A stretch of 41,598 bases of DNA from a virus, in the UHGV virus genome UHGV-0209794. One strand, given 5' to 3'. The stretch's first letter is position 1, and each line of letters starts with the position of its first letter. Position numbers and translations under genes: made by a program. The notes below the pieces were generated by a model, which had not been told where the DNA came from, did not search any database, and saw nothing but the letters and a program-made list of their open reading frames with translations. Below, one piece after another: positions 1,476 through 41,598 of the stretch.

Positions 1476-2069
1476 ATGGCACAGCATAGCTTTATCAAAA
1501 TGTCTAACGATACTCTTGTACCGGCTAACCCTGTTACGAGAGATTTTCTGCATTCAAAAATCAAGTGTGGTGATGTGCTTTCAGCTAATTTTAAGAAAGC
1601 TCGTAACCCTCGATTTCATCGTAAATACTTCGCATTACTCAACTTAGGCTATGAATATTGGGAACCAGTTGGCGGTACCATTTCACCTGAGGAGAGGGAG
1701 CTTGTGCGTGGTTACATCACATTCCTTTCGTATCACACGGATAATGCTGACGCGCTCTTATCAGCATCCGATATCTATCTAGAAGAAGTCGCACAAAAAC
1801 GTGCGCAAAATATCTCAGCAACAAAATCATTTGATGCTTTTCGCTATTGGGTTGTAGAGCAAGCCGGTTATTACGATACGTTTGAAATGCCTGACGGTAG
1901 TTTACGTCGTGTCGCTAAATCAATCAGCTTTGCAAATATGGACGACTTAGCATTTAGCGAACTCTACAAAGCCACACTCGATGTGCTTTGGAATTTTATC
2001 CTTCGTAAACAGTTCCCCACTCAAAAAGCTGTAGAAAATGCAGTATCTCAATTATTAAGTTTCACGTAG
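1476..2069 (+). CDS. conserved phage protein of nin-like region (possibly DUF1367-like)
   Basis: 197-aa ORF sitting between the MTase and nuclease/Q genes. The family assignment is from memory only. Confidence 0.4.
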   Translation: MAQHSFIKMSNDTLVPANPVTRDFLHSKIKCGDVLSANFKKARNPRFHRKYFALLNLGYEYWEPVGGTISPEERELVRGYITFLSYHTDNADALLSASDIYLEEVAQKRAQNISATKSFDAFRYWVVEQAGYYDTFEMPDGSLRRVAKSISFANMDDLAFSELYKATLDVLWNFILRKQFPTQKAVENAVSQLLSFT

Positions 2070-2080
2070 AGGCAAGACCA

Positions 2081-2392
2081 ATGATCAAATCAAAGACCAA
2101 AGAAGAAAGACAGTGGCTATCAGATGTAGCAGAACTGGGTTGTATTTGTTGTCGCAATATGGGGCTTGGGGCAAGTAGAGCGGAAATACATCATGTTAGA
2201 ACAGGGCAGGGAATGGCACAGCGAGCCAGTCATACAGATGTTTTACCACTGTGTCCGCCACATCATAGGGCATGTTATGAAACCGGCTTTCATGCATCAC
2301 CTAAATCATGGCAAGAAATTCATGGTAGCGAGATTGAGTTATTAGAACAGACTAAGCAAGAAGTAATGGAGTTACGAGCATGTCGAGTATAA
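2081..2392 (+). CDS. YbcO-like (DUF1364) putative Zn-binding nuclease
   Basis: 103 aa with a CxxC...HH...CPPHH pattern resembling DLP12 YbcO. It lies directly upstream of Q, as in lambda-type phages. The start codon is preceded by the AGAGGCAAGACCA motif. Confidence 0.5.
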   Translation: MIKSKTKEERQWLSDVAELGCICCRNMGLGASRAEIHHVRTGQGMAQRASHTDVLPLCPPHHRACYETGFHASPKSWQEIHGSEIELLEQTKQEVMELRACRV

Positions 2393-2913
2393 AGAGCATA
2401 TCAGATGGGTTAAAACTTGATGATGATCAGGTTGCATGGATCCAGCCTTGGTTATCAAAATTTGGAGCATGGGTATATTCAGGGAGGATAGAAAAAAGGC
2501 AAAGCAGTATTATTGCTGAATTTATGGCGACAGTAGAAAGGCGTGATTATCCTGAGCGAGAAATGTGTAATGACGATGACGGAATGTTGATTGCTAAAGT
2601 AGTCGATAAAATTTATCACATAGACAGAATAGCGTTTACGCTCTTGTTACTGCGTTATGCCTTCGGTAGTTCAGATCGCGCTATTGCTCGTTATTACCAC
2701 AATATAGCAAAACCGCGACAAATGATTAGGCGCAATAGAACGGTAGAATATAGAAAACCCTCGATGTCTACATGCCGAAGAGAAATTGAGGACATTATTA
2801 ATTCAGCCGAATATTTAATTTACCCACATTTAAAAGATGCATTTAAAAAACGAGAAAAAGAGTGGAAAAGTAAAAATAATAGCAAGAACGTGTTGACTTC
2901 TTTGAGCCAATGA
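2380..2913 (+). CDS. late-gene antiterminator Q-like protein
   Basis: Position (last gene before a strong intrinsic terminator and the late/lysis genes) and a C-terminal LLRYAFGSSDRAIARYY segment, which looks like an HTH/sigma region-4-like segment. Assigned by synteny rather than strong similarity. Confidence 0.5.
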   Translation: MSSIKSISDGLKLDDDQVAWIQPWLSKFGAWVYSGRIEKRQSSIIAEFMATVERRDYPEREMCNDDDGMLIAKVVDKIYHIDRIAFTLLLLRYAFGSSDRAIARYYHNIAKPRQMIRRNRTVEYRKPSMSTCRREIEDIINSAEYLIYPHLKDAFKKREKEWKSKNNSKNVLTSLSQ

Positions 2914-2920
2914 TCCACTA

Positions 2921-2949: not shown

Positions 2950-2959
2950 TGACCAACTA

Positions 2960-2986: not shown

Positions 2987-3074
2987 ATCTAAAACAGATA
3001 AGGCTTGCTGTTTCCTTTGTTCAGAGTTACATGTGTGTTCGCGACTAATAACTGACCAAAGGTATTAAAATATC

Positions 3075-3272
3075 ATGTTAAAACATAGTGATATGACAGA
3101 AGAGGCAAGACTTGTTTTTGAAGTTGTTCCGCATACGAAAAAAGTAACAGCTGGCGAAGTTGCACAGTTTACTTATTTAACTGAGCCACGTTGTCAATTG
3201 ATATTAACGCAGTTGGCGATGGCGGGGCTAATCAAAGAAAATATCAAAGAAAACACATTCCAAAATATCTAA
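3075..3272 (+). CDS. small winged-helix-like protein
   Basis: 65 aa; the segment TAGEVAQFTYLTEPRCQLILTQLAMAGLIKE looks like a wHTH. Confidence 0.35.
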   Translation: MLKHSDMTEEARLVFEVVPHTKKVTAGEVAQFTYLTEPRCQLILTQLAMAGLIKENIKENTFQNI

Positions 3273-3414
3273 TACTGTGAAAATGGGCGACTGTAAAAGT
3301 GTTGGTAGCACCTTTACAGTCATTCACCCGTTCAGGTAGATCACGGACAAACTAAAGCCCACTGCTTATGTGCACAAAGCATAGTGAGCTTATCAAAAAA
3401 GGTTCTCCTGATCT

Positions 3415-4461
3415 ATGAAAAATACTGTGAATTTAAACAGTGTAAATTTAGTCAATGATGACTCACTCAGCTATATAAAAACACTTCCCGATAATTGTAT
3501 TGACTTAATCGCAACTGACCCGCCTTACTTTCAGGTGAAGTCTTGTAGTTGGGATAATCAGTGGGAAAACGTAACATCATATTTATCTTGGCTTGATGAA
3601 ATGCTTGCGGAATTTTGGCGAGTTTTAAAGCCTAACGGTAGCCTTTATATCTTTTGCGGTTCGAAACTAGCGTCAGATACAGAATTACTCGTTCGTGAAA
3701 GATTTAATATTCTAAGTCACATTGTATGGGCTAAACCATCAGGACCTTGGCGCAGGGCATGTAAAGCTGATTTACGCAGTTTCTTTCCAAGCACTGAAAG
3801 AATTTTATTTGCTGAACATTATCAAAGTCCATACAAGGGCAAAAGTAGTGCTTATCTTCAGCAATGCAAAGCGCTTAAAGAAAATGTATTTAAGCCTTTA
3901 ATTGAGTATTTTAAATCTGCACGTGAATCGTTAGGAATAACAGCAAAAGAAATAAAACAGGCCACAGGTAAACAAATGGCTTCACACTGGTTTAGTTACA
4001 GCCAATGGCAACTACCGAGTGAGTCTGACTACAAAAAACTGCAGGAGCTGTTTCATCGCGTAGCAAGTGAAAAGTTTAGTAGTAATCCTTTAAATCGTGA
4101 TCATACTGATTTGATAAAGGTGCAGGCTTCTCTTAGTCGAGAGTACCAAGAGCTTGCTGAACAATATCAATTATTGCGCCGTCCTTTTTCTGTCACCGTT
4201 GATGTTCCTTACACCGATGTGTGGACGTATCCACCTGTGCAATATTACGCAGGTAAACATCCTTGTGAAAAACCAGCTGAAATGATGGAACACATTATTC
4301 GCTCAAGCAGTCGCGAAGGTGATCTGGTTGCTGATTTTTTTATGGGGTCGGGTGCAACACTAAAGTCCGCATTAAAGTTAAATCGTCGAGTTCTTGGAGT
4401 TGAACTTGAGAAAGAGCGATTTGAACAAACAAGAGTGGAAATAAATAACATGAAGTCATAA
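3415..4461 (+). CDS. DNA methyltransferase, beta-class N6A/N4C (orphan)
   Basis: N-terminal DLIATDPPYF (motif IV) and C-terminal FFMGSGAT (motif I, FxGxG). The order IV then I indicates beta-class. 348 aa. Confidence 0.75.
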   Translation: MKNTVNLNSVNLVNDDSLSYIKTLPDNCIDLIATDPPYFQVKSCSWDNQWENVTSYLSWLDEMLAEFWRVLKPNGSLYIFCGSKLASDTELLVRERFNILSHIVWAKPSGPWRRACKADLRSFFPSTERILFAEHYQSPYKGKSSAYLQQCKALKENVFKPLIEYFKSARESLGITAKEIKQATGKQMASHWFSYSQWQLPSESDYKKLQELFHRVASEKFSSNPLNRDHTDLIKVQASLSREYQELAEQYQLLRRPFSVTVDVPYTDVWTYPPVQYYAGKHPCEKPAEMMEHIIRSSSREGDLVADFFMGSGATLKSALKLNRRVLGVELEKERFEQTRVEINNMKS

Positions 4462-4723
4462 AGCGGGTTGGCCGTATTTTACATGCTGATGTCATGATTC
4501 AGCCCCGAGTCTCCTAGTAAAGAGCCAGCTTTGCATCTGGTAAGGGTTAATAAGAAAAGAAGCACCGGTAACGAAGCATGAAAGCCAATCGTGCACTGGT
4601 TAGATCCCACAGGGAGCAGAGCCGAACTGGGGTTATAAACTCAAGGGCATGAGCGTGACCACTACGAGAGTGTGGTGAAATTTCATTTCCCATAACACAA
4701 ACAACTCGGACACTCCGTAGGGG

Positions 4724-4999
4724 GTGTATATGCGCATGGACAAATTAACCAATGCTACCTACGGAACGGCTGGCTTAACTGCCTTTTTTGCAAGTCTCTC
4801 ATTGTATGAATGGGGATTTGTAATAGGGATGGGATTCAGCATGCTCCTTGGATTAGCAACTTATCTGATGACATGGCGAGAACAACGAAAACGAACAGCG
4901 TTATTTGCTGAATTAGTTCATCGAAATTGTTCTAGTGATCCGCAAGACATAGAAAAGATAGTTGGCGAGATGCTGACTAAAGCTAAAAAGGACATTTAA
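4724..4999 (+). CDS. holin (likely pinholin partner of SAR endolysin)
   Basis: 91 aa with two hydrophobic TM stretches (GLTAFFASLSLY, FVIGMGFSMLLGLATYL) and a charged C-terminus. Immediately upstream of the endolysin. Confidence 0.6.
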   Translation: MYMRMDKLTNATYGTAGLTAFFASLSLYEWGFVIGMGFSMLLGLATYLMTWREQRKRTALFAELVHRNCSSDPQDIEKIVGEMLTKAKKDI

Positions 5000-5469
5000 T
5001 GAACCTAAAACAGAAAGTGACAGCAGTTGCGAGTGCTGGCGCTGTAAGTATTGCGATAACAGTGATTGGTTATTTTGAGGGTGTGCGTTATGAACCTTAC
5101 CGCGATGTTGCTGGAATTCTGACGGTTTGTTATGGACACACTGGAAACGACATCATTCAAGGTAAGACATACACACAACAAGAGTGTGACGAGTTACTGC
5201 AGAAAGACTTTATCAGAACGCAACAGCAAGTCGATATCCTGGTTAAAGTGCCGGTCGATGATAAAACAAAAGCTTCTCTATATTCCTTTGCTTTTAATGT
5301 GGGTACCACAGCTTTTGCACGTTCTACATTGCTAAAGAAATTAAATGCGGGTGATCAGTATGGCGCTTGTGAAGAAATGAAACGCTGGGTTTATGCGGGT
5401 GGAAAGGTTTGGCGAGGGTTAGTCAGTCGTAGAGAGGCGGAGTCAGCATTATGCAATGGAAGTCTTTAA
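4999..5469 (+). CDS. SAR endolysin (T4-lysozyme-like glycoside hydrolase)
   Basis: N-terminal signal-anchor-release segment KVTAVASAGAVSIAITVIGYF followed by an EG...D...T catalytic triad pattern (EGVRYEPYRDVAGILTVCYGHT), typical of P1 Lyz / phage 21 R. Confidence 0.75.
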   Translation: MNLKQKVTAVASAGAVSIAITVIGYFEGVRYEPYRDVAGILTVCYGHTGNDIIQGKTYTQQECDELLQKDFIRTQQQVDILVKVPVDDKTKASLYSFAFNVGTTAFARSTLLKKLNAGDQYGACEEMKRWVYAGGKVWRGLVSRREAESALCNGSL

Positions 5470-5609
5470 TCATCATCGTCGGTTTTATCCTTACATTACT
5501 CATCTCGGTCGCTGGTGGTATTTATATCTCAATTGATAATTCATGTGTTAATGATAAAGCCAGTTTAGAAAAGCGCTGTCAGATAGCTCTCTCACATCAT
5601 CGGTACTAA
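5451..5609 (+). CDS. small membrane protein (52 aa), unannotated ORF
   Basis: ATG at 5451 gives MQWKSLIIIVGFILTLLISVAGGIYISIDNSCVNDKASLEKRCQIALSHHRY, with one clear TM helix. It overlaps the endolysin 3' end and ends 2 nt before Rz. Confidence 0.3.
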   Translation: MQWKSLIIIVGFILTLLISVAGGIYISIDNSCVNDKASLEKRCQIALSHHRY

Positions 5610-5611
5610 TT

Positions 5612-6073
5612 ATGAAGCACTGGAAACTTTACATTGTCGTTGTGATGGTGGGGATTGTTGTTGGTGGTTGTGTACTGATTAATGCACAAACTAAAAGAAT
5701 TAACATACTGATAGAAAAGAACAAAGAACTTACTACAACACTCGAAGAACAAAAGGCTATCAATACTGAATATCAAGTGCGCATAGAGCGACTCAATCAA
5801 CTTGATACAAGACACACACAGGAGCTTGTTAATGCAAAGAATGAAATTAGTCGCTTGCGTGATCTTAGCGAGCGTAATCCTGAGCGGGTGTACATCAAAG
5901 CTGAGTGTCCAAAAAGCGCTACCACTTCCACCTCCAGCGTGGCTAATGCAACCACCGCCCGACCTACTGACACCGCTATCAGAAATTATTGGTTACTCAG
6001 AGAGCGAATAACACAGTCTGAGCAAATGATATTAGGGCTACAAGATTACATTAGGCAGGAGTGCGTAAACTAA
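5612..6073 (+). CDS. i-spanin (Rz-like)
   Basis: N-terminal TM (LYIVVVMVGIVVGGCVL), a coiled-coil periplasmic domain, and an embedded +1-frame lipoprotein ORF. Confidence 0.7.
   Translation: MKHWKLYIVVVMVGIVVGGCVLINAQTKRINILIEKNKELTTTLEEQKAINTEYQVRIERLNQLDTRHTQELVNAKNEISRLRDLSERNPERVYIKAECPKSATTSTSSVANATTARPTDTAIRNYWLLRERITQSEQMILGLQDYIRQECVN
5832..6011 (+). CDS. o-spanin (Rz1-like lipoprotein) embedded in Rz
   Basis: MQRMKLVACVILASVILSGC has a lipobox (LSGC), followed by a proline-rich mature part (LPLPPPAWLMQPPPDLL). It lies entirely inside Rz in another frame, with AGGAG 8 nt upstream of ATG 5832. Confidence 0.65.
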   Translation: MQRMKLVACVILASVILSGCTSKLSVQKALPLPPPAWLMQPPPDLLTPLSEIIGYSESE

Positions 6074-6549
6074 AGTTTATTTAATTTTTCTCTAATACGT
6101 TTTTTTATGGCTCTATATGAGCGCTGGTACTCGCGGGATTTAATTGCATCTCTACCATCAGCGCGTTTAGCACCATCGGGCAGTAAATTGTGCTCGATAT
6201 TAGATGCTCGTTCTGATTGTTCTGCTAAATCGAAATCTCTACGTTGTGAGCGCTCTGATCCAACTGCTAATTCTGTTGCTGTGGATAAATGGGAGTAATC
6301 AATTTTACCCTCATCAATAATTCGCTGTAATTTTTCTCTGTGTTTCTGGCGGTAGGCAACACCAGCTAGAGGTGTAGTGGCTGGGATATTAAATTTATCC
6401 CTATAATCACTCAGGGTCATATGATGAATTTTAGTGATGTGATTAGCGAGAAATGAAAAACGTTTCCCGCACTCCAGGCATTCAATTTTATCGTGAGCTA
6501 GATATTCTGCTAGCTCCTCGCGATTATTGATGCGTTTATTCGTCATCAC
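6070..6549 (-). CDS. Ros/MucR-family zinc-finger DNA-binding protein
   Basis: CLECGKRFSFLANHITKIHHMTLSDYRDKFNIPATTPLAGVAYRQ matches the Ros/MucR C2H2-like zinc-finger signature (CxxC...HxxxHH, MT..EYR.K). 159 aa. Confidence 0.6.
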   Translation of the reverse strand: MMTNKRINNREELAEYLAHDKIECLECGKRFSFLANHITKIHHMTLSDYRDKFNIPATTPLAGVAYRQKHREKLQRIIDEGKIDYSHLSTATELAVGSERSQRRDFDLAEQSERASNIEHNLLPDGAKRADGRDAIKSREYQRSYRAIKKRIREKLNKL

Positions 6550-7033
6550 TGCGACTCACAGTGTACCAATTGTTATCGTACATCAGGTAATTTTCATCGT
6601 CCCATGAGAATATTTCGTCAGTGTCGGTCGGCTCATTGTTACCAAATGTTTTTAGATCATCAATTTTGATTATGTCCTCAATTTTTTGAATATAATCATC
6701 ATCGGAGTTACGAATATAATCAGCTAATTCATTTAATGAGTTACATAGATCAGTGAGTGATTCGGCGTTATTTACAGCGTTAACTAATACATCTAATTCA
6801 GGGTTGTTAGTTTTCATAATATTGTTCTCAACGTTATAGATTGCTGTTTTAGTTCTATTTAGTTGTTCGTTTAACGCCTCAACAATACGATCTGTTGATG
6901 GCGCTCTAGCTGTTCCAGCAACAATGCGTCTGATAGTTCTGTCGCTCATATTCATCAGTTTTGACATTGGCGTTTGCCACTGGGTGCCGAAAATTAATCT
7001 ACCGGCTTGAATTAATTTTTCTCTATCGGTCAT
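6536..7033 (-). CDS. hypothetical protein with N-terminal HTH-like segment and acidic C-terminus
   Basis: 165 aa with SKLMNMSDRTIRRIVAGT (HTH-like) and a DE-rich C-terminal third. Overlaps the downstream gene by 14 nt, so operonic. Confidence 0.4.
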   Translation of the reverse strand: MTDREKLIQAGRLIFGTQWQTPMSKLMNMSDRTIRRIVAGTARAPSTDRIVEALNEQLNRTKTAIYNVENNIMKTNNPELDVLVNAVNNAESLTDLCNSLNELADYIRNSDDDYIQKIEDIIKIDDLKTFGNNEPTDTDEIFSWDDENYLMYDNNWYTVSRSDDE

Positions 7034-7072
7034 GCTGTCTCTCTTATTGCTCCCATTATCTCTAGGGGGTTG

Positions 7073-7456
7073 TTAAATGATTGGTGATAAATCTTCGTGA
7101 TGAACCCATGAGTTAGTTACACAGTCAAAATAAGGTTTTACTGATAACAGTTTGTACGCACTGGTGTTAGATATTTTCTCGCCGTGCATGTAGGCATAAC
7201 TGATGTTCCCAGTGTTATAAAACCCAATTTCTAATCCGAAAACGGCTTCTAATTTGTCGTAATTGATATACACACGACGTTTGCCGTAGTTTTCCCAAAC
7301 CGAGCAACCTAATTTAATTAACTTAGAGGTTGTTGATTCTACTGTGTGGTACAGGCTACGCAGGGCTAACATAAATGCGATGCGGTAGTCACCAACAACA
7401 GAAACTGTGCTTTTAGCGATTTTATGAGCTGATGTGAATAAAGCTGATTTGTTCAT
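7073..7456 (-). CDS. hypothetical protein
   Basis: 127-aa ORF, first gene of a three-gene minus-strand cassette between the lysis and packaging modules. Confidence 0.4.
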   Translation of the reverse strand: MNKSALFTSAHKIAKSTVSVVGDYRIAFMLALRSLYHTVESTTSKLIKLGCSVWENYGKRRVYINYDKLEAVFGLEIGFYNTGNISYAYMHGEKISNTSAYKLLSVKPYFDCVTNSWVHHEDLSPII

Positions 7457-31822: not shown

Positions 31823-32094
31823 TAAGTGCTTCTACATTTTTCAATAAATGCTTTTATATTTTTGTACTCGTATCGAACAACTTTATTGGTAAATTTGATT
31901 GGTGCGAGTATTTTTCTGTGACGATGTCTATTATTCCAATCGCATAATGTTTTAGTGCTAATTCCTCCTAGTTCAATACAAGCCTCTTCAGGAGTTAACA
32001 TATCATCATCTTCATACTCTTTGTTTTTAACGTTATCTGGGATATTTGTCGTTTCTTTTTTTGTTTTGCGTTCTACGCATACGTCTGTTTTCAT
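31819..32094 (-). CDS. AlpA/excisionase-family HTH protein
   Basis: LTPEEACIELGGISTKTLCDWNNRHRHRKILAPIKFTNKVVRYEYKNIKAFIE is AlpA/Xis-like. The start at 32094 is preceded by GAGGCAAGACCGAA; an alternative shorter start lies at 32001. Confidence 0.5.
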   Translation of the reverse strand: MKTDVCVERKTKKETTNIPDNVKNKEYEDDDMLTPEEACIELGGISTKTLCDWNNRHRHRKILAPIKFTNKVVRYEYKNIKAFIEKCRSTY

Positions 32095-32266
32095 TTCGGT
32101 CTTGCCTCATCATATTAGATATTAACAAGTCGGCAGTCTGACAAGCATTTTTTATTTCTATATCGGTGCAAGATTTATTTTTTATACTCGATGCAAGCCG
32201 GCCTAATTTAATATCAAAATCTGTTAATAATTGAGAACCTGGTTCCCAAGGTGTTAATAATTTCAT
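32033..32266 (-). CDS. hypothetical small protein (uncertain)
   Basis: ORF-track frame starting at MKLLTPWEPG. It overlaps the AlpA-like ORF by ~60 nt, so one of the two starts is probably wrong. Confidence 0.2.
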   Translation of the reverse strand: MKLLTPWEPGSQLLTDFDIKLGRLASSIKNKSCTDIEIKNACQTADLLISNMMRQDRNENRRMRRTQNKKRNDKYPR

Positions 32267-32508
32267 GGTGGTTACCCATTGGTCTTGAATAAACCACCAT
32301 GCTAATAACAACGAAAAGTAAAAACTGATTATGCTTAATCAACTTTTTACTCGAATAATTCCCTCCACTGGATAGCATTCTGCAATTTTCCCTTTGGTCG
32401 CGAGTAATTCCTTATCAATTAAACAATTTTGTTCATCAGGATAAATGTAGCCATAGGGTTCGAACTGACAAATCATCGAACTACATACCAAAAGGAATAA
32501 ACCATACA

Positions 32509-32679
32509 TTATTGTTCACTCCTTTGTTGCTCCGCGGGAGTAGGCTGAAGTTCAATTTTGACGTGTGCAGGAAAATCGTATGAAACATGGCAACGTCTAT
32601 CTGTTGAAACAAAACCGTATGATCCATCTGGTAATGTGATTTTTACTGCTTGGTCTTTTTGTTGGGAGTGTCTTAGCAT
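32509..32679 (-). CDS. hypothetical small protein
   Basis: Start set at the internal ATG 32679 (MLRHSQQKDQ...), which is immediately preceded by AAAGAGGCAAGACCA. 56 aa. Confidence 0.35.
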   Translation of the reverse strand: MLRHSQQKDQAVKITLPDGSYGFVSTDRRCHVSYDFPAHVKIELQPTPAEQQRSEQ

Positions 32680-32934
32680 TGGTCTTGCCTCTTTGTGACA
32701 TGTCACACTAATGAATAATAGCTGTATTTATAGGGCGCCCCAGTTGTAGCAATAACGCTTTTTGCATCGATGAAAGTGCTTGCTGTTCTTGCTCTGTGAC
32801 ATTTTTTGTTGATGCCGTAGACCATTCGATACTGCATTTATTTGTTGTTTCATCATGGGTAATAACAACTTCTAACTTCATGGCCATAACGTTTATCTCC
32901 TGATAATGCGCCCAAGAAAGGGCGCTATTATGAA

Positions 32935-33435
32935 TTAACGAACCATTAATGAACGTTCACCAACTTCAAGATGTGCTCCGGGAATTTCAATACCATTTTC
33001 AAGCGCTTCTTTGATTCCTTTTTTATCGGGCGCTGTGATGGTTTTAACATCAACCAACTCATCTGGTAGTAGTGCTTCATTATCAATAATTACTGAAACA
33101 CTACCTTTTCGTGCTGTAAATGTATTCTTTGTTGTTTTTAATTTATCTAATCCTGAAGCCAATAAGCAGTTAAGAGCATATTCCTTTAGGTTTTTAGCTT
33201 GGTTTTCGAATGATTTTTTACGATCAGATAAACGTTTAGATTCTTCATCAAGTGTTTTAGCTTGACCTTCGATATTGCGAACGTGGTGCATAATTGCATC
33301 CAATTTGTCACCTAACTCGCCCTCGATACCTGCCAATGTATCTGCGATATCTTCAGCAGTGAATTCTCCTGTTTCAACGAGTTGCTGTAATTTTTCATAA
33401 TTGGTCGCCAGTGCGATAGCGGTAGTATTGGTCAT
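32935..33435 (-). CDS. Gp157-family protein (Sipho_Gp157-like)
   Basis: 166 aa from MTNTTAIALATNYEKLQQLVETGEFTAEDIADTLAGIEGEL... Lies directly downstream of the annealing-protein gene (TAATG overlap), the usual Sak/Gp157 pairing. Confidence 0.5.
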   Translation of the reverse strand: MTNTTAIALATNYEKLQQLVETGEFTAEDIADTLAGIEGELGDKLDAIMHHVRNIEGQAKTLDEESKRLSDRKKSFENQAKNLKEYALNCLLASGLDKLKTTKNTFTARKGSVSVIIDNEALLPDELVDVKTITAPDKKGIKEALENGIEIPGAHLEVGERSLMVR

Positions 33436-35402
33436 TAGATTGCCTCTTCTTTCTGTTTCAGTTTGTCTAAACACTCTTTTTCGATTTGGTTTAATCGACG
33501 TAAACGGCCAGACAAATACTTCTCGTAATCTTCGTCACGACGTTCTTTGGCTGATTTAATATGTGCAGAAATTTCGCGTGTTAATGTCGATGCAATACCT
33601 CGTAATTCATTTGCTGTAACAGCACTACGCATCACTTCTGTATGTTTAGTAAATTTCTCGTCTAATTCTTTGCGAATACGTGTGATATCTTCCGCTTTTT
33701 CACTGGCATTTTTGATTTCAAACTCAAGCTTATTGCTTACTATATATTCAGGGTTATCATGCATACCCATAAAGACATCAGAGCTAAAACCAAGCATCGA
33801 TAGGGCTTTTTTGATGGCATCAGTGAGTGATTTTTTAATAGCTTCACCATCAACTTTAATGCCATAGTTAGTTTGATAGCGGTATGGTGTTGCACCATAG
33901 CTTTCAAATTCACCGCGGGTTTCACATTCGATGATGTACCAAAAACGGATCTTAATTGAGTGGTTTTGTTCGCAGAATAACGAGCCATCAGCATCACGTA
34001 AAAAACGGGTTGCGACTTGTTTATTACGCTCATCAAGGACAGGTTCTAAAAGAGGCTTTCCATCAATAAATTTTTCTTCAAGGACTTCATATCCCCAACC
34101 TTCACCAATAGGACCGAATATTTCAGTTGCACGCATAAACATGTAAGTGCTGTTTATACTGGTTCCCGTAAATCCCACGCCTTCTAATGGCTTAGTAAAG
34201 CGCGGGTCTGTACGTTGTACTTGTTTCCAAATACTTAGGTTATTAGCGTCACTCGCGTTAAGAACTTCATCAATAACACTGGCACGTTGCTCAAAATTAT
34301 CTTGTTGTGCTGATGGTGTTTCGGGTTCTTTAGGCTCTACAGTTTGTTCAACCACCGGAGAACTTTCTGTTTTAGGGGCTACTTCTTGCTTTTTACGTGA
34401 ACGTTTAGGCTTAGTTTCCTTTTCAACGGTACTTTTGCTAGATACCGAAGGGGTATTATCCAATTGGTTAGAAGTGATACTTTCTTCTTTTTCAGCATTG
34501 CCAGTAGGCTTGTTAATACCTAAATGACGGTCAATAAATTCTTTTCGCGCATTGGGATTATCTAATAACTCAGGCTGTTTTTTACTTTCAGCTATTAACG
34601 AGAAAATCTTTTCACGTGGTATATCCAAGATGCCAGCTGTTGTGCGTAAATCCATTGACCAGCGTTTCCATGCTTTGTCGTCGTCATCTATCAGTTCTTT
34701 GGCTTTTTTTACTTGAGATGCGAGGACATTATTAGGATCAAAGTCATCTAACAGTGCTAAGGCAATTTCGGTATCTATGGTTGAATAGTTACGTTTGATA
34801 GAAGATGTTTCTTCTTGTTGTTGTTCTGGTTCTTCGGTTAGCCAGCTTTCACCTAATGATTTAGCTTCTTCAACGGTGACATCTTCATTAGCAAACTCAT
34901 AGATAGCCTGTGCTATTTCCATTGTTTGCTCAGCATCCATCAAAGAAAGTTTTGTTATTTCAGCTAGGCCTGTAGCGATATTACGAATTTTGGGATCTTC
35001 TTTTCCTGCCAAATATTCCAGAGCAGTTGAAAACTCATTGTTAGTTATTTGAGTCTTTCCAAATAAAAGTAAACACGCAATTCTGGGCTTCGTTCCTAGT
35101 TTTTTGAAATTCTTATATTCAATAGGTTTCCATTGAGTTCCATCAAACTCATTTTCAACAGCAAATTTCTCATCGAATATATCTAAAGTAGGGCAAACAG
35201 AGCCGTCAAGGTGTTCGCTAATTAACGGATCATCAGTGTTAAAGTTATCCATAGCTTCTGGATATGCTTCAGATAATTTTACTACTGCAGTCGCTGTTGC
35301 CAGTTTTGCATTAGCGGTGTTTAACGCTATGGCCAGCGGTACAGCACCGTTGTTTGTACGAGCCTCGGTCGTAGGCTCAAATACACAGATAAAAGTTTTC
35401 AT
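33435..35402 (-). CDS. Rad52/Sak-type single-strand annealing protein fused to large N-terminal domain
   Basis: C-terminal region GVGFTGTS...IFGPIGEGWGYEV...YGATPYRYQTNYGIKVDGEAIKKSLTDAIKKALSMLGF parallels the Rad52 core (GFGTS...IFGYNGWSTEV...YGT...AKKSAVTDALKRSLRGFG). The N-terminal ~380 aa are unrelated and include a K/E/S/P-rich linker. Start is preceded by AAAAGAGGCAAGACCA. Confidence 0.6.
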   Translation of the reverse strand: MKTFICVFEPTTEARTNNGAVPLAIALNTANAKLATATAVVKLSEAYPEAMDNFNTDDPLISEHLDGSVCPTLDIFDEKFAVENEFDGTQWKPIEYKNFKKLGTKPRIACLLLFGKTQITNNEFSTALEYLAGKEDPKIRNIATGLAEITKLSLMDAEQTMEIAQAIYEFANEDVTVEEAKSLGESWLTEEPEQQQEETSSIKRNYSTIDTEIALALLDDFDPNNVLASQVKKAKELIDDDDKAWKRWSMDLRTTAGILDIPREKIFSLIAESKKQPELLDNPNARKEFIDRHLGINKPTGNAEKEESITSNQLDNTPSVSSKSTVEKETKPKRSRKKQEVAPKTESSPVVEQTVEPKEPETPSAQQDNFEQRASVIDEVLNASDANNLSIWKQVQRTDPRFTKPLEGVGFTGTSINSTYMFMRATEIFGPIGEGWGYEVLEEKFIDGKPLLEPVLDERNKQVATRFLRDADGSLFCEQNHSIKIRFWYIIECETRGEFESYGATPYRYQTNYGIKVDGEAIKKSLTDAIKKALSMLGFSSDVFMGMHDNPEYIVSNKLEFEIKNASEKAEDITRIRKELDEKFTKHTEVMRSAVTANELRGIASTLTREISAHIKSAKERRDEDYEKYLSGRLRRLNQIEKECLDKLKQKEEAI

Positions 35403-35416
35403 TGGTCTTGCCTCTT

Positions 35417-35712: not shown

Positions 35713-36045
35713 CTAATAAGGGATTTCTTCGTCGGTTTTTGAAATGGGTTTGCCTTCCAAGCAGAGAAGCATTTGGATTTGATCTTCTAACAAGCTTGTT
35801 TTTACTTGGGCATCAGCTAGGATTTTTTCTTGTTCATTACGTAGAAAATCAATTTCAGCGTGAATGAGATCAGTTTGAGTAGGCTCTTTAAAAGGAACAT
35901 CAACAGTGTGTTCAGCAATAACAAAACCTAGTCCAGCATTGGGATCGGCTTTAAATGCGTAGGCTTTATATTGGTAAGAACCATCGAACTGTTTTTGAGC
36001 ATGAATATAGAGTGTGACTGTTAGGCTTTCAGGTTGTGCTTTCAT
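35713..36045 (-). CDS. hypothetical early protein
   Basis: 110-aa ORF with an AAGGAG RBS. Confidence 0.4.
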   Translation of the reverse strand: MKAQPESLTVTLYIHAQKQFDGSYQYKAYAFKADPNAGLGFVIAEHTVDVPFKEPTQTDLIHAEIDFLRNEQEKILADAQVKTSLLEDQIQMLLCLEGKPISKTDEEIPY

Positions 36046-36068
36046 AGCAACTCCTTTAAAATAACTGC

Positions 36069-36185
36069 GATCAGTGATTTATCATTGGTCTTGCCTCTTC
36101 TAGCGTTTGGTCGCGCTAGTAGAACTCTCGGTTAGCTTTGGTCGGCGACCCGAGGTAAAGGAACCCACTTCGGTGGGTTTTTTTA
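36069..36185 (+). ncRNA. candidate antisense sRNA carrying complement of the shared AGAGGCAAGACCA translation-initiation motif
   Basis: TTGTGC-N17-TAAAAT promoter-like hexamers at 36034-36062. Strong plus-strand intrinsic terminator AACCCAC-TTCG-GTGGGTT plus T7 at 36162-36184, in a region where all annotated genes are minus-strand. The transcript would contain CAUUGGUCUUGCCUCUU. Confidence 0.3.
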
Positions 36186-36318
36186 CATCTTCATCAAATT
36201 CAAGAGTTGCAATTTTATTGTCGGCACAACAATTGAATACTGTTTCAGGGAAAAGATTGCAAAGGTTTAAGACATTATCCAACTTAATGTTTTCCATTTT
36301 ATTTTTACCTATATGCAT
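36100..36318 (-). CDS. hypothetical first gene of leftward early operon (uncertain)
   Basis: 72-aa ORF, but its 3' third overlaps a strong plus-strand terminator hairpin. The C-terminus may be an artefact. Confidence 0.25.
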   Translation of the reverse strand: MHIGKNKMENIKLDNVLNLCNLFPETVFNCCADNKIATLEFDEDVKKPTEVGSFTSGRRPKLTESSTSATKR

Positions 36319-36676
36319 AATATGTCTCCTGTCATTTATGATATTGCTAGTCTAATTTTGGTGATTGGTGGTAGGTGCTTATCTCCTACTTTCGGTCTTG
36401 TTGTGCAAGTATCCGCGTGGGTTAAGTGTCCACTGCTAATCAGCCTTAGCGTTCACCAATCCCAAAAATTGTGTGCCGTCTTTCCGAGCTGTCAGGTCTG
36501 CCTTGTAGCTTTGGTCTGTAACTAATTTAATTCCCTGGTATTGCTAAAAAATCTGCTGTTATGCCGTGGTAATCATGACAGGTCGCGATGAGAGCTGTGG
36601 TTCTCCTCCGACATAACAGCAAAACTAAATCTGAACACTGACCTAAACACTTGCTGTGTTGTTTTTGGTTGCTTTA

Positions 36677-36717
36677 ATATTAGCGTTGCTATTTTAATTG
36701 TCAATAGCATTGCTAAT
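36677..36717 (-). promoter_or_regulatory. pL-like promoter with OL operators
   Basis: On the minus strand, TTGACA (36699-36704) -N16/17- TAATAT (36677-36682). Overlapping palindromic operators AATAGCATTGCTAAT (36703-36717) and ATTAGCGTTGCTAT (36679-36692). Confidence 0.5.
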
Positions 36718-36727: not shown

Positions 36728-36753
36728 AAAAAAAACCACCGTATCGACGGTGG
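36728..36753 (-). terminator. rho-independent terminator of repressor gene
   Basis: On the minus strand, CCACCGT-cgat-ACGGTGG followed by T8, directly after the cI-like stop. Confidence 0.6.
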
Positions 36754-36775
36754 TTGTATGTAACACATTGTTATT

Positions 36776-37534
36776 TTATGCAAAATCAATCATTTTAATA
36801 GGAAGTGATTTTATTACTTTTCCAATAATTCGGAGATCATACATTTCTGACTCTTCAATATAAAACGTTTCATAAGCAGGATTATCTGATTTAACAGCTA
36901 GTTTTCTGCCCTTAACTCTTTGTAATCTTTTTATAAATAATGAATTTTCAAAACTAAACACATAAACACCATCGCCATCAAAAAATTCATTATGAGTATC
37001 AACAAAAACGACATCTCTTGGGTTTATTGCTGGAGACATGCTGTCACCGCTAATATTAATTATTTCAATCCCTTTTAAACTTTTTCTACCGAATAAATCG
37101 AATACTTTTTCTGGTGAGAATTCAATAGATTTTATAGTGTCAGGGAATTCGTTATTTATAAAGCCACCGGGGCCTGCTTTTGCATATACATCCATCAGTC
37201 TTAACGTCGTATGTTCATTTTGAGTTGATGTAGAAGAAGTTATTTGTTTTATTTCTTCTTCTTTTCCTGTTCGCCTAACGTAGTCTAACAATGTTTTTAG
37301 CTCTGGATTAATATCTTCAGGATCAACTTTCAATAATGATGCGAATTTTAGAATTGTATCAGTATTTAAGGCTGTTCGGCCATTTAAATACTGGCTTACT
37401 GCACCTTGAGTAGCAAAACCCATAATCTCTGCGGCTTTTTCTTGAGTCAAGCCCAGAGATTCTCGTTTTGCTTCCCAAATGTTTCGTAAGTTTCGGGCGG
37501 CAATTTTATCTGATTCTGATATTTTTCTGTTCAT
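36776..37534 (-). CDS. cI-like repressor (XRE HTH + S24 LexA-like autopeptidase)
   Basis: N-terminal HTH (LGLTQEKAAEIMGFATQGAVSQYLNG). C-terminal GDSMSPAI (Ser) and FIKRL (Lys) peptidase S24 motifs. Divergent from a cro-like gene. Confidence 0.8.
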   Translation of the reverse strand: MNRKISESDKIAARNLRNIWEAKRESLGLTQEKAAEIMGFATQGAVSQYLNGRTALNTDTILKFASLLKVDPEDINPELKTLLDYVRRTGKEEEIKQITSSTSTQNEHTTLRLMDVYAKAGPGGFINNEFPDTIKSIEFSPEKVFDLFGRKSLKGIEIINISGDSMSPAINPRDVVFVDTHNEFFDGDGVYVFSFENSLFIKRLQRVKGRKLAVKSDNPAYETFYIEESEMYDLRIIGKVIKSLPIKMIDFA

Positions 37535-37936: not shown

Positions 37937-38392
37937 ATGAATTTTGATATCAACATTATCAGAGCTGAAATTGAGGACTGGGCTGTAGAACAAGGGCAAG
38001 AACATGTTGCTATTGAGATTAGCCGAGCTTACTTACGATTAGTGATTAATCAAGAACATGGTCGATTACATGCCATTGAGGATCAAACGGGTAAGGCCGA
38101 CTGGAAAGCAATAAACAATAACCGGCAACAGATATTCCGTTGGTTACGTGGTGATTCTCGCGCATCTCAAAGAAAAATTGCTGAGTTAATGCCAGCGATT
38201 GAAATGGCTCTACCGGCTTCGAGGTTAGCTCGAGTACGTGGAGATACAAAAAACTATTTAGCAACCGTGGCCATTCAGCGTTTTGCTGATGCTATGACTG
38301 AAATCTTATTAGAGGGTCGTGACATGTCACACCAAATAAACAATGTAGTACGTGCACTAAATGAGATATCACGCCCGACCAGCGTGCATTAA
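37937..38392 (+). CDS. YdaT-like regulator (cII-position protein)
   Basis: NRQQIFRWLRGDSRASQRKIAELMPAIEMALP parallels Rac YdaT (NQQNIYHRWLKGETKTQREKIQKLIPAILAILP). 151 aa. Confidence 0.5.
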   Translation: MNFDINIIRAEIEDWAVEQGQEHVAIEISRAYLRLVINQEHGRLHAIEDQTGKADWKAINNNRQQIFRWLRGDSRASQRKIAELMPAIEMALPASRLARVRGDTKNYLATVAIQRFADAMTEILLEGRDMSHQINNVVRALNEISRPTSVH

Positions 38393-38409
38393 TTCAAGAG
38401 GCAAGACCA

Positions 38410-38634
38410 ATGATTAGATCAACTGAAAAAATCACATACCGCAATGGGTTTATGCTGAATGATAAACCTGCTCATATCTCAGATATCCAACATATTTTTG
38501 ATGGTAGACGCGTTATTGCGTTGTTAATTTGGGAGCAGTATGAGCGAGAAAAACAAAAATTACTGTCAAAAAATTTAACCCCTGAGCAGTACCAAAATGC
38601 TTGCCGTAATATAGCTAAAGCACTGGGGGTGTGA
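38410..38634 (+). CDS. hypothetical small protein
   Basis: 74-aa ORF; start preceded by CAAGAGGCAAGACCA. Confidence 0.4.
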   Translation: MIRSTEKITYRNGFMLNDKPAHISDIQHIFDGRRVIALLIWEQYEREKQKLLSKNLTPEQYQNACRNIAKALGV

Positions 38635-38635
38635 A

Positions 38636-39463
38636 ATGAGTAATAAATTAACTGGCTATGTGTGGGATGCATGTGCTGTTTCAGGTGTTAAGGGTACCAA
38701 GTTAATGATCATGGTACGCCTAGCCGATTATTCGAGCGATGAAGGGGTTGCTTATCCCAGTGTTGAAACCATCAGTCGTCAAATTGGTGCGGGAATTAGC
38801 ACAATTCGCAATGCATGTAATGAACTTGAGCGTGATGGTTGGTTAGTTAAAAAGCAACGTAGAAATGGCAATCGTAATGCTTCAAATTTATATTTTTTAA
38901 ATGTCGATAAATTGGAAAAAATCGCATTAGAAGAGAACGCCAAATTAAGAAAACAACGTGAAAAACTATCAAATTTTCACCGTCCAGATTCTGACCGTTC
39001 AGATTCTGACCGTACAGAAAACAGTAAAAATGTACGTTTTGACCCTCCAGAATCTGGCGTTCAAGGTGGTTTTCACCCTCCAGAATCTGGAGGCGATCCA
39101 CAAGTAAATTCAAAACATGATCCACAAGAATTACTCGAGGGGAAAAAATCGAAAAATAAATTCGATCCGAAATTGGCTAAACCGTCAAATGTGAGTGATG
39201 AGGTTTGGCAGGATTGGATTAACTTCAGGAAAGAAATTAAAAAACCGCTGACAGAAACCATGTGCAAGCAACAAGCAAAAAAATTATCGCTTTGCACCGA
39301 TGCCAACGCTGTGATTTGTAATTCAATTGCCAACGGTTGGCAGGGGCTATTTCCTGAAAGATCCGTAGTACAAACTCAAAAAGTAAATTCTCATACTGGG
39401 TTTAGCGAAAAAGATTACCAGTCTCAAGATCCTCATTGGTTTGTGGGAGGTGGAAATGTCTGA
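38636..39463 (+). CDS. replication initiator / replisome organiser (lambda O-like) with internal origin
   Basis: N-terminal wHTH-like domain, a low-complexity middle containing DNA iterons, and a C-terminal domain. Upstream of DnaC-like and DnaB genes. Confidence 0.55.
   Translation: MSNKLTGYVWDACAVSGVKGTKLMIMVRLADYSSDEGVAYPSVETISRQIGAGISTIRNACNELERDGWLVKKQRRNGNRNASNLYFLNVDKLEKIALEENAKLRKQREKLSNFHRPDSDRSDSDRTENSKNVRFDPPESGVQGGFHPPESGGDPQVNSKHDPQELLEGKKSKNKFDPKLAKPSNVSDEVWQDWINFRKEIKKPLTETMCKQQAKKLSLCTDANAVICNSIANGWQGLFPERSVVQTQKVNSHTGFSEKDYQSQDPHWFVGGGNV
38984..39090. repeat. origin iterons: 4 copies of CAGATTCTG/CAGAATCTG core (two direct 15-mers + two inverted 15-mers) followed by AT-rich stretch
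   Basis: CCAGATTCTGACCGT (38984), TCAGATTCTGACCGT (38999), CCCTCCAGAATCTGG (39043, 39076). AT-rich 39100-39180. Confidence 0.5.
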
Positions 39464-40049
39464 ACAAAATTTATTAACTGCGGTGAATATTCCCCCTCGC
39501 TTTGCTAATGCGACATTTGAATCATTTGTCGCCTCAACACCGACAGCAAAACATAATTTAAAAATTTGTCAGCAGTACGTCGAAACTTGGAGCGACCGAA
39601 AAAACGCAGGAGAGGGGCTTGTACTGTGTGGAACACCAGGAACTGGTAAAACACACCTTGCAGTATCAATCGCCCGTCAGATTGCCGGAGAATTGCAAGA
39701 AACGGTATTCATTACCACAGCCTCACGTATCATTCGCGCTTTTCGAAGAACATGGGCTGGAAATTCAGAATTCAGTGAACTTGATGTACTTGAAAAATAT
39801 TGCACACCTGATTTGTTAATTATTGATGAAATTGGTGTTCAGTATGGCACTGATTCTGAACGTAATATCTTGTTTGAGGTGATTAATGATCGCTACGAAG
39901 ATTTGCTACCTACAATTTTGATAAGCAACTTGCCCGTTGTTGATCTACAAGAAATGCTTGGTGAACGAGTTGTGGACAGATTATTACAGGGGGGAACGGT
40001 ATTAACGTTTAACTGGCCAACATATCGTAGAGGTAATCATCATGCATGA
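39456..40049 (+). CDS. DnaC-like helicase loader (IstB-like AAA+ ATPase)
   Basis: Walker A GTPGTGKTHL and Walker B LLIIDEIG. Start at ATG 39456, which has a GGAGGTGG RBS. Confidence 0.75.
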   Translation: MSEQNLLTAVNIPPRFANATFESFVASTPTAKHNLKICQQYVETWSDRKNAGEGLVLCGTPGTGKTHLAVSIARQIAGELQETVFITTASRIIRAFRRTWAGNSEFSELDVLEKYCTPDLLIIDEIGVQYGTDSERNILFEVINDRYEDLLPTILISNLPVVDLQEMLGERVVDRLLQGGTVLTFNWPTYRRGNHHA

Positions 40050-41415
40050 AAAAGAATTAGAACATGCGGTGATTAGTGGTTTGTTAGCTGGTGGTGCTAG
40101 TCAAGATGCATATGAGGTATTAGCCACATTACCTGAAGAAGCCTTTAGTTCTAGATATTTTCGTAATGTCTACAAAGAAATTAAAAAACAAGCGCTAGCA
40201 AGTTCTTTAATAGATCCCTTTTTTATTGCTGATGCGCTAGGTGAAAAAGGCGATTTAGCAAATTTACTTGAGCTATCTAAAACACCTATTTGGACAGCAA
40301 ATTTAAAAGGCTATGCCTCAAAAGTTTATAGTTATTATCGTGTTAGAGAAGTCATTCAATTAATTTCCAAGTATCAAAATGATATTACTACTGCAAATAA
40401 TCATGAACAAGCTGAAGAATTTATTCATCAATTTGCAACCCAAATTGGCCAGCTGACAATTGGTAATCAGAACCTACTTCCTGTGCATTTAAATACACTA
40501 CTTGAAGGATATGTAGATGTTTTAGAACGCAGAAACAAAGGGGAAGATGCTGTTGGGATGATAAAAAGTGGTATTGAAGCTTTAGATGACAAAATTGGAG
40601 GCTTTAATCCAACAGACTTAGTTTTTATTGGCGGTCGTCCGGGGATGGGAAAAACAGAGCTTGCACTAACGATGACTGAGGGAATGACCAGAGATGGAGG
40701 CGGTGCATTATTCTTCTCGATGGAAATGTCCAATCAGCAAATTACTGAGCGTCTAGTTGCAGGTTCTGCTCAACTACCAATATCAACATTGAGACATCGT
40801 GGGCGATTGGATGATGAAGGATGGGGGCGTTTAAGTTCAGCACTAGGCCATTTAATGGATAGAGATATTCATATCATCGATGCGAGTAATCTAACTATTG
40901 AACAAATATGTGCAATCAGTGAAAACCACAAACGTAAATATCCAAATTTGAAAGGAATTTTTGTTGATTATTTAGGGTTAATTAAAAAACCTAAAGCAGA
41001 ACGTAATGATTTAGCAATTGCGAAAATATCTGCATCTTTAAAAGGATTAGCAAAGAGGTTACACACGCCAACTATTGCGTTAAGCCAGCTATCTCGTGAT
41101 GTTGATAAAAGACCTATTAATCAACGCCGTCCTGTTTCTGCTGATTTACGCGATTCTGGTAGCTTAGAGCAAGACGCTGACTTAATTTTATTTACCTATA
41201 GGGAGGCCGTATATAACCCCAATAGCCCTGCGAAAAATTATGCCGAGATCATTATTGATAAATTTAGACACGGAGAAACCGGCACAGTCTATCAAGAATT
41301 TAAGAATGGCCACTATCTGCCTACCGACCAAATTACAGCGTCAGAAGTGTCCAAAATGCAACAACAATCACAGCAAAACGATAAAAGACGTCGTTACGCA
41401 GAAAAAGCATTTTAG
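40042..41415 (+). CDS. replicative DNA helicase DnaB-family
   Basis: 457 aa with Walker A GGRPGMGKTELAL and DnaB-like C-terminal motifs (SQLSRDVDKRP, DLRDSGSLEQDADL). Confidence 0.85.
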   Translation: MHEKELEHAVISGLLAGGASQDAYEVLATLPEEAFSSRYFRNVYKEIKKQALASSLIDPFFIADALGEKGDLANLLELSKTPIWTANLKGYASKVYSYYRVREVIQLISKYQNDITTANNHEQAEEFIHQFATQIGQLTIGNQNLLPVHLNTLLEGYVDVLERRNKGEDAVGMIKSGIEALDDKIGGFNPTDLVFIGGRPGMGKTELALTMTEGMTRDGGGALFFSMEMSNQQITERLVAGSAQLPISTLRHRGRLDDEGWGRLSSALGHLMDRDIHIIDASNLTIEQICAISENHKRKYPNLKGIFVDYLGLIKKPKAERNDLAIAKISASLKGLAKRLHTPTIALSQLSRDVDKRPINQRRPVSADLRDSGSLEQDADLILFTYREAVYNPNSPAKNYAEIIIDKFRHGETGTVYQEFKNGHYLPTDQITASEVSKMQQQSQQNDKRRRYAEKAF

Positions 41416-41434
41416 TTAAAACAGAGGCAAGACC

Positions 41435-41598
41435 ATGACAATTAAAGACTCTCTTACTCACGAATCTCTCGTTCGTGATAATCACCCTATATTACCCGAC
41501 GATGGGTTAGACCATACACAGTGTCATATTGATCGCCTCCATGCATCAGCAAGAGCGAGAACAAAAGCACCTTATCAACCTAAGGTTAAACCACAAAA
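41435..41598 (+). CDS. hypothetical protein (5' partial, runs off window)
   Basis: ATG 41435 is preceded by ACAGAGGCAAGACC. The frame is open to the window end. Confidence 0.3.
   Translation, partial: MTIKDSLTHESLVRDNHPILPDDGLDHTQCHIDRLHASARARTKAPYQPKVKPQ

Follow-up and report, generated by a model that had tools for sequence, protein, structure and literature searches.

What keeps the whole interval from the Shine–Dalgarno sequence to the ATG invariant in front of several different genes of one phage, when ribosome binding does not constrain the spacer between the two? The question is raised by the virus genome UHGV-0209794, a lambdoid temperate phage or prophage of 41.6 kb (41,598 nucleotides (nt); this whole stretch is called the window here). 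An earlier note, made from the sequence alone, had described in it a short conserved motif at seven places, two of them variants, and had suggested either a shared post-transcriptional control element or a linker for modular gene exchange. Our analysis bears out the first of these suggestions. The window carries the gene of an IsrB-like small RNA (sRNA). The 5′ region of this RNA is the exact complement of the motif, and from one phage lineage to another its seed and the motif change together. The motif is therefore quite probably the recognition tag of a phage-encoded, trans-acting, base-pairing sRNA that would control the tagged early genes, as judged from sequence comparison.

The core of the tag, GAGGCAAGACC, is present in exactly seven copies in the window (2069+, 32108−, 32691−, 35414−, 36097−, 38398+ and 41424+), whereas 0.24 copies are expected from shuffles, and none of 100 shuffled windows gave eight matches when up to one mismatch was allowed. 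The complete 16-mer AGAGGCAAGACCAATG is found in five of the seven copies, and the remaining two are variants as described, GAGGCAAGACCGAAATG at 32108–32092 (−) and AGAGGCAAGACCATG at 41423–41437 (+). An eighth near-copy, GAGGCAAGACT at 3102–3112 (+), lies inside an open reading frame (ORF; 3075–3272), away from its start. Sequences flanking the seven copies are unrelated. Each copy either overlaps the stop codon of the upstream gene or stands in a short gap (up to about 10 nt) past it, with the ATG 0–4 nt downstream, and its GAGG is placed 8 nt from the ATG. All copies belong to the PL operon (36.7→31.8 kb, −) or to the PR/nin operon (37.6 kb to the window end, then 1–2.9 kb, +) and are oriented with transcription, while the lysis and structural genes (4.7–28.8 kb) contain none, so that the confinement to early and regulatory regions noticed earlier is real.

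Six of the seven copies stand at gene starts, as had been claimed. On the PL side, the variant GAGGCAAGACCGAAATG (32092–32108, −) precedes the gene for a Xis-like DNA-binding protein (31819–32094), a copy at 32677–32692 (−) precedes a gene for a protein of 56 amino acids (aa; 32509–32679, phrog_2482), and a copy at 35400–35415 (−) precedes the gene for a 655-aa RecE-like exonuclease (33435–35402). On the PR side, the tag at 38397–38412 (+) precedes a 74-aa gene (38410–38634, phrog_2465) immediately 3′ of the cII-like gene, the variant AGAGGCAAGACCATG (41423–41437, +) precedes the gene following dnaB, which extends past the window end, and AGAGGCAAGACCAATG at 2068–2083 (+), overlapped by the stop codon of ninB/DUF1367 (1476–2069), precedes the gene for a Ref-like RecA-dependent nuclease (2081–2392). 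The seventh copy (36083–36098, −), previously assigned to a four-codon mini-ORF (MINH), is not one of these starts. Read on the other strand, it belongs to the 5′ region of the sRNA gene.

This gene, about 115 nt in length, occupies 36069–36183 (+) and gives the single match of our covariance model R1 in the window (151.7 bits). It consists of a 5′ hairpin (H0), the seed, two further hairpins H1 (36100–36119, +) and H2 (36127–36154, +), both with the loop UUUGGUCG, and an intrinsic terminator hairpin, ACCCAC-UUCG-GUGGGU, followed by U7 (36160–36184, +). The stretch CAUUGGUCUUGCCUCUUC stands between H0 and H1, and the seed, CAUUGGUCUUGCCUCU at 36083–36098 (+), is the exact complement of the tag. 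A putative sigma-70 promoter can be read upstream (36034–36062, +), with a −35 element TTGTGC at 36034–36039, a 17-nt spacer and a −10 element TAAAAT at 36057–36062, which would place the start site at 36069. A −10 hexamer of the form TAnAnT is located at the same position in all relatives (TATAAT, TATATT or TATACT). At the sequence level the gene is thus an independent unit with its own promoter and Rho-independent terminator. In 13 of 15 representative homologues the predicted transcript starts with the Dam site GATC (36069–36072 in the window); this GATC is able to pair with GGUC and extend H0, and it is possible that the promoter is under methylation-dependent control.

The structure is conserved among relatives. 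H1 and H2 were drawn wrongly by RNAalifold when the input was a plain MAFFT alignment; the model R1 was built from a manually drawn structure, and the homologues were aligned to it. In this model-fitted alignment of 23 distinct homologues, 100% of the cells of 26 base pairs are paired, and changes on both sides have occurred in 14 of the 26; this level was reached by none of 500 shuffles, and slid controls were paired to at most 49%. While the stems vary, UUGGUCUUGCCU is unchanged in all 23 homologues. The same comparison explains the mini-ORF. The copy is kept in relatives together with an adjoining hairpin which has a covarying stem and a loop that is always (C)GACCAA(A), and some relatives have no ATG there (CCAACGG). 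As this change from CAATG to CAACG is matched by a change in the partner strand of H0, the mini-ORF is the 3′ arm of H0 read backwards, and the copy is no translation start. A 72-aa ORF at 36100–36318 (−) likewise crosses the terminator, H2 and H1 on the other strand; since it has no family match either, it is probably not a real gene. Compared with close relatives such as L241, the window also carries an insertion of about 280 nt (36185–36470) between the sRNA terminator and a GAAAGA-loop hairpin described below.

How well does this RNA match the tagged starts? The 5′ region CAUUGGUCUUGCCUCU pairs perfectly with AGAGGCAAGACCAAUG, covering the Shine–Dalgarno sequence, the spacer and the AUG, and the perfect pairing extends over 13–16 nt at six gene starts in the window. 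Among the duplex energies calculated for 60 gene starts, the best four all belong to tagged genes and the six tagged starts are within the top eleven (duplexfold −47.7 kcal/mol for 32677–32692, −46.9 kcal/mol for 38397–38412 and −40.5 kcal/mol for 2068–2083). In addition, the loops of H1 and H2 complement the GACCAA half of the tag. These loops are predicted to be unpaired with a probability of about 1, and the UUGCC of the seed with a probability of about 0.87. The seed is conserved, is complementary to the ribosome-binding sites (RBSs) of several unlinked messenger RNAs and is predicted to be accessible, fully in the loops and partly in its linear portion. A partial tag, AGAGGCAATCTAATG, at 33433–33449 (−) precedes the Mu Gam-like gene (32935–33435; duplexfold −30.2 kcal/mol), and this gene start is a possible weak target.

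Evidence for pairing also comes from seed and tag changing together. A scan for sRNA homologues that was independent of the seed sequence recovered a lineage with the seed UUGGUCUUUCCUC, and all tags in the loci of this lineage are GAGGAAAGACC. In loci with G at this seed position there are 646 copies of GAGGCAAGACC and none of GAGGAAAGACC, whereas in loci with U there are none of GAGGCAAGACC and 19 of GAGGAAAGACC. A scan across IMG/VR for any base other than G at this position yielded 19 genuine sRNA genes, all with U, and each of the 19 is accompanied by four to seven copies of GAGGAAAGACC and by zero canonical copies. The base before GAGG also follows the sRNA: where the sRNA reads ..CCUCU, the targets are AGAGGC in 148 of 203 cases and CGAGGC in 6 of 203, and where it reads ..CCUCG or ..CCUUG, the targets are CGAGG in 18 of 28. 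None of the IMG/VR homologues is altered at the two seed U's which pair with the AA of CAAGACC. Co-change of seed and target is therefore present, in few independent events, and it supplies a natural compensatory pair (seed G/U with tag C/A).

The co-change bears directly on the simplest alternative, that the tag is merely a favoured, efficient RBS spread by descent or duplication, and that the sRNA, like lambda OOP or P22 sar, is antisense to the PL leader and has an effect only in cis. A GAGG at 8 nt from the ATG is indeed ideal for ribosome binding, the sRNA is wholly antisense to the PL transcript, and the IsrB of Gifsy-2 shows no trans sites. However, other genes of the same phage use diverse RBSs, among them a second family, GAGGTAAT, and the 8-nt spacer is not constrained by ribosome binding. 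The base that would extend pairing with the anti-Shine–Dalgarno sequence at the 3′ end of 16S ribosomal RNA (rRNA) after GAGG is U. The tag has C at this place, which gives no such extension, and this C turns to A exactly where the seed turns to U. Furthermore, 13 tag positions are invariant across five genera while the flanks carry only about 0.1 bit. We consider this alternative improbable, and the view that the spacer is conserved beyond the needs of ribosome binding is upheld: on our reading the spacer stays invariant because all targets must match one seed, and it switches when the seed does. Pairing of the spacer with 16S rRNA was considered as well, CAAGACCA being complementary to the E. 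coli 16S segment UGGUCUUG (about nt 983–990). The idea was dropped, since this segment is variable, differs in Proteus-type 16S rRNA and is helical in the ribosome.

The tag and the sRNA gene also occur together far beyond the window. The 16-mer is present in more than 120 IMG/VR stretches, often in two to five copies each, and alignment of 230 unique contexts shows a sharply bounded conserved block, which opens with the A preceding GAGG and closes with the G of ATG; the information outside it is about 0.1 bit. At least 21 families of downstream proteins carry the tag. Among bacterial genome matches, single hits are scattered as by chance and these loci have no sRNA gene, whereas multi-copy hits all come from Proteus, Providencia, Xenorhabdus and Photorhabdus, plus Rouxiella. 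The sRNA gene is likewise found in Providencia, Proteus, Xenorhabdus, Photorhabdus and Yersinia genomes, and in these five genera it stands together with four to eight tagged starts in more than 130 prophage loci; the mean over 126 loci with the canonical seed is 5.8 trans sites per locus. When 50 loci were collected by homology to the exonuclease, independently of the motif, all 50 contained exactly one sRNA gene and three to eight tags, with the sRNA gene 370–780 nt upstream of the exonuclease gene on the opposite strand. The excess over chance seen in the window is thus accompanied by multi-copy conservation in related phages. A distant sRNA homologue (40 bits) with a different 5′ domain was found in L358 (IMGVR_UViG_3300023..., ~6951–7094, −). 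Two further sites in this locus match the antisense of that 5′ domain over 22 of 23 nt (TCGAGTTTTGACCAATGACCA) and are not located directly at starts of long ORFs.

A second alternative is a Susskind–Botstein linker or boundary sequence, in which the tags would be crossover points for the exchange of early modules, aided by the RecE-like, NinB and Ref-like functions of the phage. The complementarity to the sRNA would then be incidental and due only to the overlap of the sRNA gene with one copy. The tag resembles the boundary sequences of lambdoid phages in being short, conserved and located at gene junctions where the homology of relatives breaks. BLAST matches between the window and relatives stop no more than 15 nt from four of the tags, with 29 ends counted at 32102, 32 at 35408, 11 at 32685 and 9 at 41430, against a background of 1.2. 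Nine different upstream gene clusters are found in front of the tagged exonuclease gene, and close relatives show three upstream contexts. However, untagged boundaries are as rich in breakpoints or richer (67 at 36180, 35 at 35700, 29 at 1420 and 25 at 38640), and the tags at 2075 and 38404 show no excess, so that in these redundant loci enrichment at four to five of the seven tags is equalled at untagged junctions. Like an RBS, the tag stays tied to the gene that follows it. It precedes all 52 exonuclease homologues (66–100% aa identity), in which one of three different genes stands upstream, and single-base variants of it are rare. A length of 13–16 nt is also very short for homologous exchange. 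The linker gives no account of the oriented placement 0–4 nt before the ATG, of the GACCA-loop hairpins described below, of an invariant seed amid drifting stems or of the covarying base before GAGG, and boundary sequences have neither a specific complementary RNA partner with which they co-vary nor a fixed distance to the ATG. Linkage as the primary role of the tag is thus unlikely; the second suggestion of the earlier note is not needed and at most secondary, given that homology breaks as often at untagged gene boundaries. The two roles are compatible, and a shared tag could also ease exchange.

Some tagged starts carry a second feature which fits the sRNA. A hairpin, CACGC-CCGACCA-GCGTG (38370–38386, +), lies 11 nt upstream of the tag at 38397, and its loop, CCGACCA, can pair over 7 nt with UGGUCGG, a stretch that runs across the H2 loop and its closing pair. 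This hairpin and H2 are candidates for a loop–loop contact. The stem covaries in relatives (CACGT/GCGTG, CGCGT/ACGTG, GCCCCG/CGGGGC, ATGCGC/GCGCAT and others), and hairpins with a GACCA loop are found upstream of 34 of 204 tagged starts but only 6 of 721 other starts led by a Shine–Dalgarno sequence, an enrichment of about 20-fold. A related element is present in the PL leader (36475–36524, −), where a weak GACCAA-loop hairpin, a tag-like GGCAGACC without ATG and a GAAAGA-loop hairpin follow each other; relatives carry GAGGCAAGACCAGAC at this site. It may be an additional decoy that binds the sRNA, or a nut-like site. Upstream of its GAAAGA-loop hairpin stand AGACCTGACA and a GGCA(A)GACC that is tag-like but lacks an ATG, and the hairpin is duplicated in some relatives. 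The stem covaries (GCCCG/CGGGC, GTCCG/CGGAC and GCCTG/CAGGC; relatives in L038, L063 and L100), and the hairpin, at about 36475–36490 (−), resembles a lambda-type boxB and is possibly one.

Composites of a hairpin and a linear element which flank the immunity region are reminiscent of nutL and nutR, and together with the separate GAAAGA-loop hairpin in the PL leader they bring in a third explanation, that tags and GACCA-loop hairpins are sites for a protein. This could be a RegA-type translational repressor of the phage, as in T4, or else an antiterminator resembling N, for which boxB-like hairpins together with a linear box would be the recognition site. We regard this as very improbable. Hairpin and linear element come in the opposite order to that of lambdoid nut sites, and the composite on the PL side lies on the strand opposite a complete sRNA gene that has its own promoter and terminator. 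Among the products of the early genes we recognised neither an arginine-rich N-like protein nor another protein that binds RNA, and no intrinsic terminators were found inside the early operons, which leaves none to antiterminate. Watson–Crick compensation between tag and RNA is not predicted by protein binding. Antitermination of the N/nut type was rejected on these grounds, and an operator for a CsrA-like or RegA-like protein was rejected since no candidate protein is present among the products.

What kind of sRNA is this? The Rfam model isrB (RF01386) matches the strand opposite to PL transcription at 36058–36183 with 33.0 bits (E=2e-4; gathering score 35). The model is matched over its full length with a 42-nt insertion, and both the GCUUUGGUCGG loop and the terminator CCCACUUCGGUGGG fall within the match. 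The window RNA and the IsrB of Gifsy-1 and Gifsy-2 share their site, antisense in the early-left (PL) operon of a lambdoid prophage beside a recE/sbcA-like exonuclease gene, as well as the H2 hairpin with its GCUUUGGUCGG loop and the terminator CCCACUUCGGUGGG; the 42-nt module, made of seed and H1, is additional in the window RNA. It is thus a near-threshold relative of IsrB with an added seed-and-H1 module, and falls short of formal membership in RF01386. In Gifsy-2 (NC_010393), IsrB is located at about 5993–6080 (+) and exonuclease VIII at 3070–5955 (−), and no multi-copy sites complementary to IsrB were present in the 16 kb examined. Because the Gifsy-2 IsrB has neither the seed module nor trans sites, a regulon of this kind is not general to the IsrB family. 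The promoter region of the Gifsy-2 sRNA overlaps the exonuclease VIII RBS, GAGGACAAAACAATG, which is loosely tag-like. IsrB homologues are also present, unannotated, in the GenBank records of Gifsy-1, Gifsy-2, SPN3UB, FSL SP-016, HK225 and Klebsiella phages. The sRNA region of the window has no BLAST match in the GenBank phage collection or in complete E. coli genomes.

Salmonella IsrB has been detected experimentally in lysogens as an RNA of 88/94 nt (PMC2330248). It is expressed in Gifsy lysogens, associates with Hfq and ProQ, and has been proposed to have a role in lysogeny maintenance (PMC2330248, PMC7067206, PMC5391140); binding of an RNA of some 90 nt by Hfq or ProQ is known for Salmonella IsrB only (PMC2330248, PMC5391140). 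In the literature we found no reported IsrB targets and no description of the tag, and the only literature matches to the motif string were primers for human GPX4. A brief search of the text of the paper on svsR, a prophage sRNA of E. coli NC101, showed no mention of IsrB or the exonuclease. The regulon proposed here would give IsrB-like prophage sRNAs a concrete function and a set of targets.

How might such an sRNA act? Pairing over both the Shine–Dalgarno sequence and the AUG predicts translational repression, rather than activation, of the tagged genes. In this mechanism the sRNA would occlude the RBS of every tagged early gene, that is, of the RecE-like exonuclease, the Xis-like protein, the Ref-like nuclease and three small proteins, and the H1 and H2 loops would pair with the GACCA-bearing hairpin loops upstream of some of them. 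Leaky early expression would in this way be held down jointly. The lysogen, with PL repressed and the sRNA promoter free, is the most plausible setting for this. The PL promoter (TTGACA, 16 nt, TAATAT; 36677–36704, −) directs a transcript that is antisense across the entire sRNA gene. With the gene placed in this way inside the PL leader, de-repression of PL should collide with sRNA transcription and supply a sponge: on induction, strong PL transcription would interfere with synthesis of the sRNA, and the PL transcript would be a perfect 115-nt sponge from which release of the targets might follow. One sRNA of a temperate phage could thereby coordinate unlinked early genes in two divergent operons through a shared RBS tag, which would account for the whole spacer from Shine–Dalgarno to AUG staying invariant across genera.

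Several points weigh against this reading. The predicted fold keeps CAUUGGUC in H0, so that about 5–10 nt of the linear seed are open, and the structural alignment was fitted to the model. The switch between C/A in the tag and G/U in the seed is effectively one event in one lineage, and it might in principle have arisen by gene conversion, if this altered every copy in concert, the copy beneath the sRNA gene among them. Expression of the sRNA is predicted from sequence, with a start site read from a −10-like hexamer. The Rfam isrB score is just under the gathering score, and the IsrB of Gifsy-2 lacks the module on which the proposed regulon depends. Finally, most early genes carry no tag, and the model gives no reason for the choice of those that do.

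Regulation of early genes by small phage RNAs has precedents. The c4 RNA of P1 and P7 and the CI RNA of P4 are made in the lysogen and pair with short repeated targets in early transcripts, keeping lytic functions off, and in this use of a small RNA against repeated early-transcript sites they resemble the system proposed here. However, these RNAs are processed from the operon that they control and recognise two to three sites in one leader, and the effect in P4 is transcription termination. The window sRNA is in contrast a separate, terminator-ended transcript that would act on at least six RBSs over two divergent operons, and the likeness drawn here is one of function.

A closer parallel on the target side is offered by the start-associated sequences (SAS) of Cluster K mycobacteriophages, a 13-bp asymmetric repeat with a Shine–Dalgarno core located 3–7 bp before start codons, mostly ATG (PMC3203893). 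SAS precede only non-structural genes of various families, about half have an additional upstream inverted repeat, and four K1 phages have one reverse-oriented SAS each, away from a gene start; the binding partner, RNA or protein, was left open by the authors (PMC3203893). The tag shares with SAS the Shine–Dalgarno-containing repeat before starts of non-structural genes. It differs in sequence (SAS consensus GGGATAGGAGCCC) and in host phylum, and SAS have 11–19 copies and no identified partner, so that the two are functional analogues only. By analogy with the seventh copy of the tag, one may speculate that a reverse-oriented SAS marks an anti-SAS RNA. The window may in this sense serve as a template for resolving start-associated repeats of other phages.

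The tag is common to phages of five genera with different immunity regions. It is conceivable, though we hold it only tentatively, that it is a portable address label: a gene gaining the tag, or brought in with it through recombination, would come under whichever resident prophage sRNA has the matching seed, and such an sRNA would also silence the tagged early genes of superinfecting heteroimmune relatives. If this is true, an RNA-based layer of cross-immunity or exclusion would lie over repressor immunity, the lineage with G→U in the seed and C→A in the tag would be an escape or incompatibility group, and the SAS of Cluster K may work alike.

The lambdoid map of the window has the nin region containing NinB, the Ref-like nuclease and Q at 0–2.9 kb (+), lysis and structural genes at 4.7–28.8 kb, int, xis and the RecE-like exonuclease gene at 30.4–35.4 kb, cI at 36776–37534 (−), and cro with the cII-like, O-like, DnaC-like and DnaB genes at 37.6–41.4 kb (+). 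In the GenBank phage collection no close relative of the window was found outside the lysis cassette (lysozyme and Rz, 4707–6030), which is 92.7% identical to that of Proteus phage vB_BPM-V3. Sub-threshold Rfam matches to OmrA-B (27.8 bits) and GcvB (21.2 bits) at 36728–36802 (−), where the 3′ end of cI and the terminator lie, are weak and probably owe their score to nothing but the terminator hairpin.

A few further repeats were noted. Directly upstream of the tag at 32677–32692 lies an imperfect 15-nt palindrome, GTGTGACATGTCACA (32694–32708, −), with the perfect 14-nt core TGTGACATGTCACA, which could be an RNA hairpin or a DNA operator. A partial tag without GAGG, CAAGACCAATG, is present at 32277–32287 (−). 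GACCAA is about 2-fold over-represented in the window (37 against 19.6 expected) and occurs 11 times in sense orientation across the 4.9-kb PL operon. The second RBS family, GAGGTAAT/GAGGTAAG, is found at 16, 246, 1060, 10673, 35701 (−) and 40042 and often includes the TAA stop codon of the upstream gene; its copy at 1047–1062, TGAGGTAAGATCAATG, differs from the tag by three mismatches.

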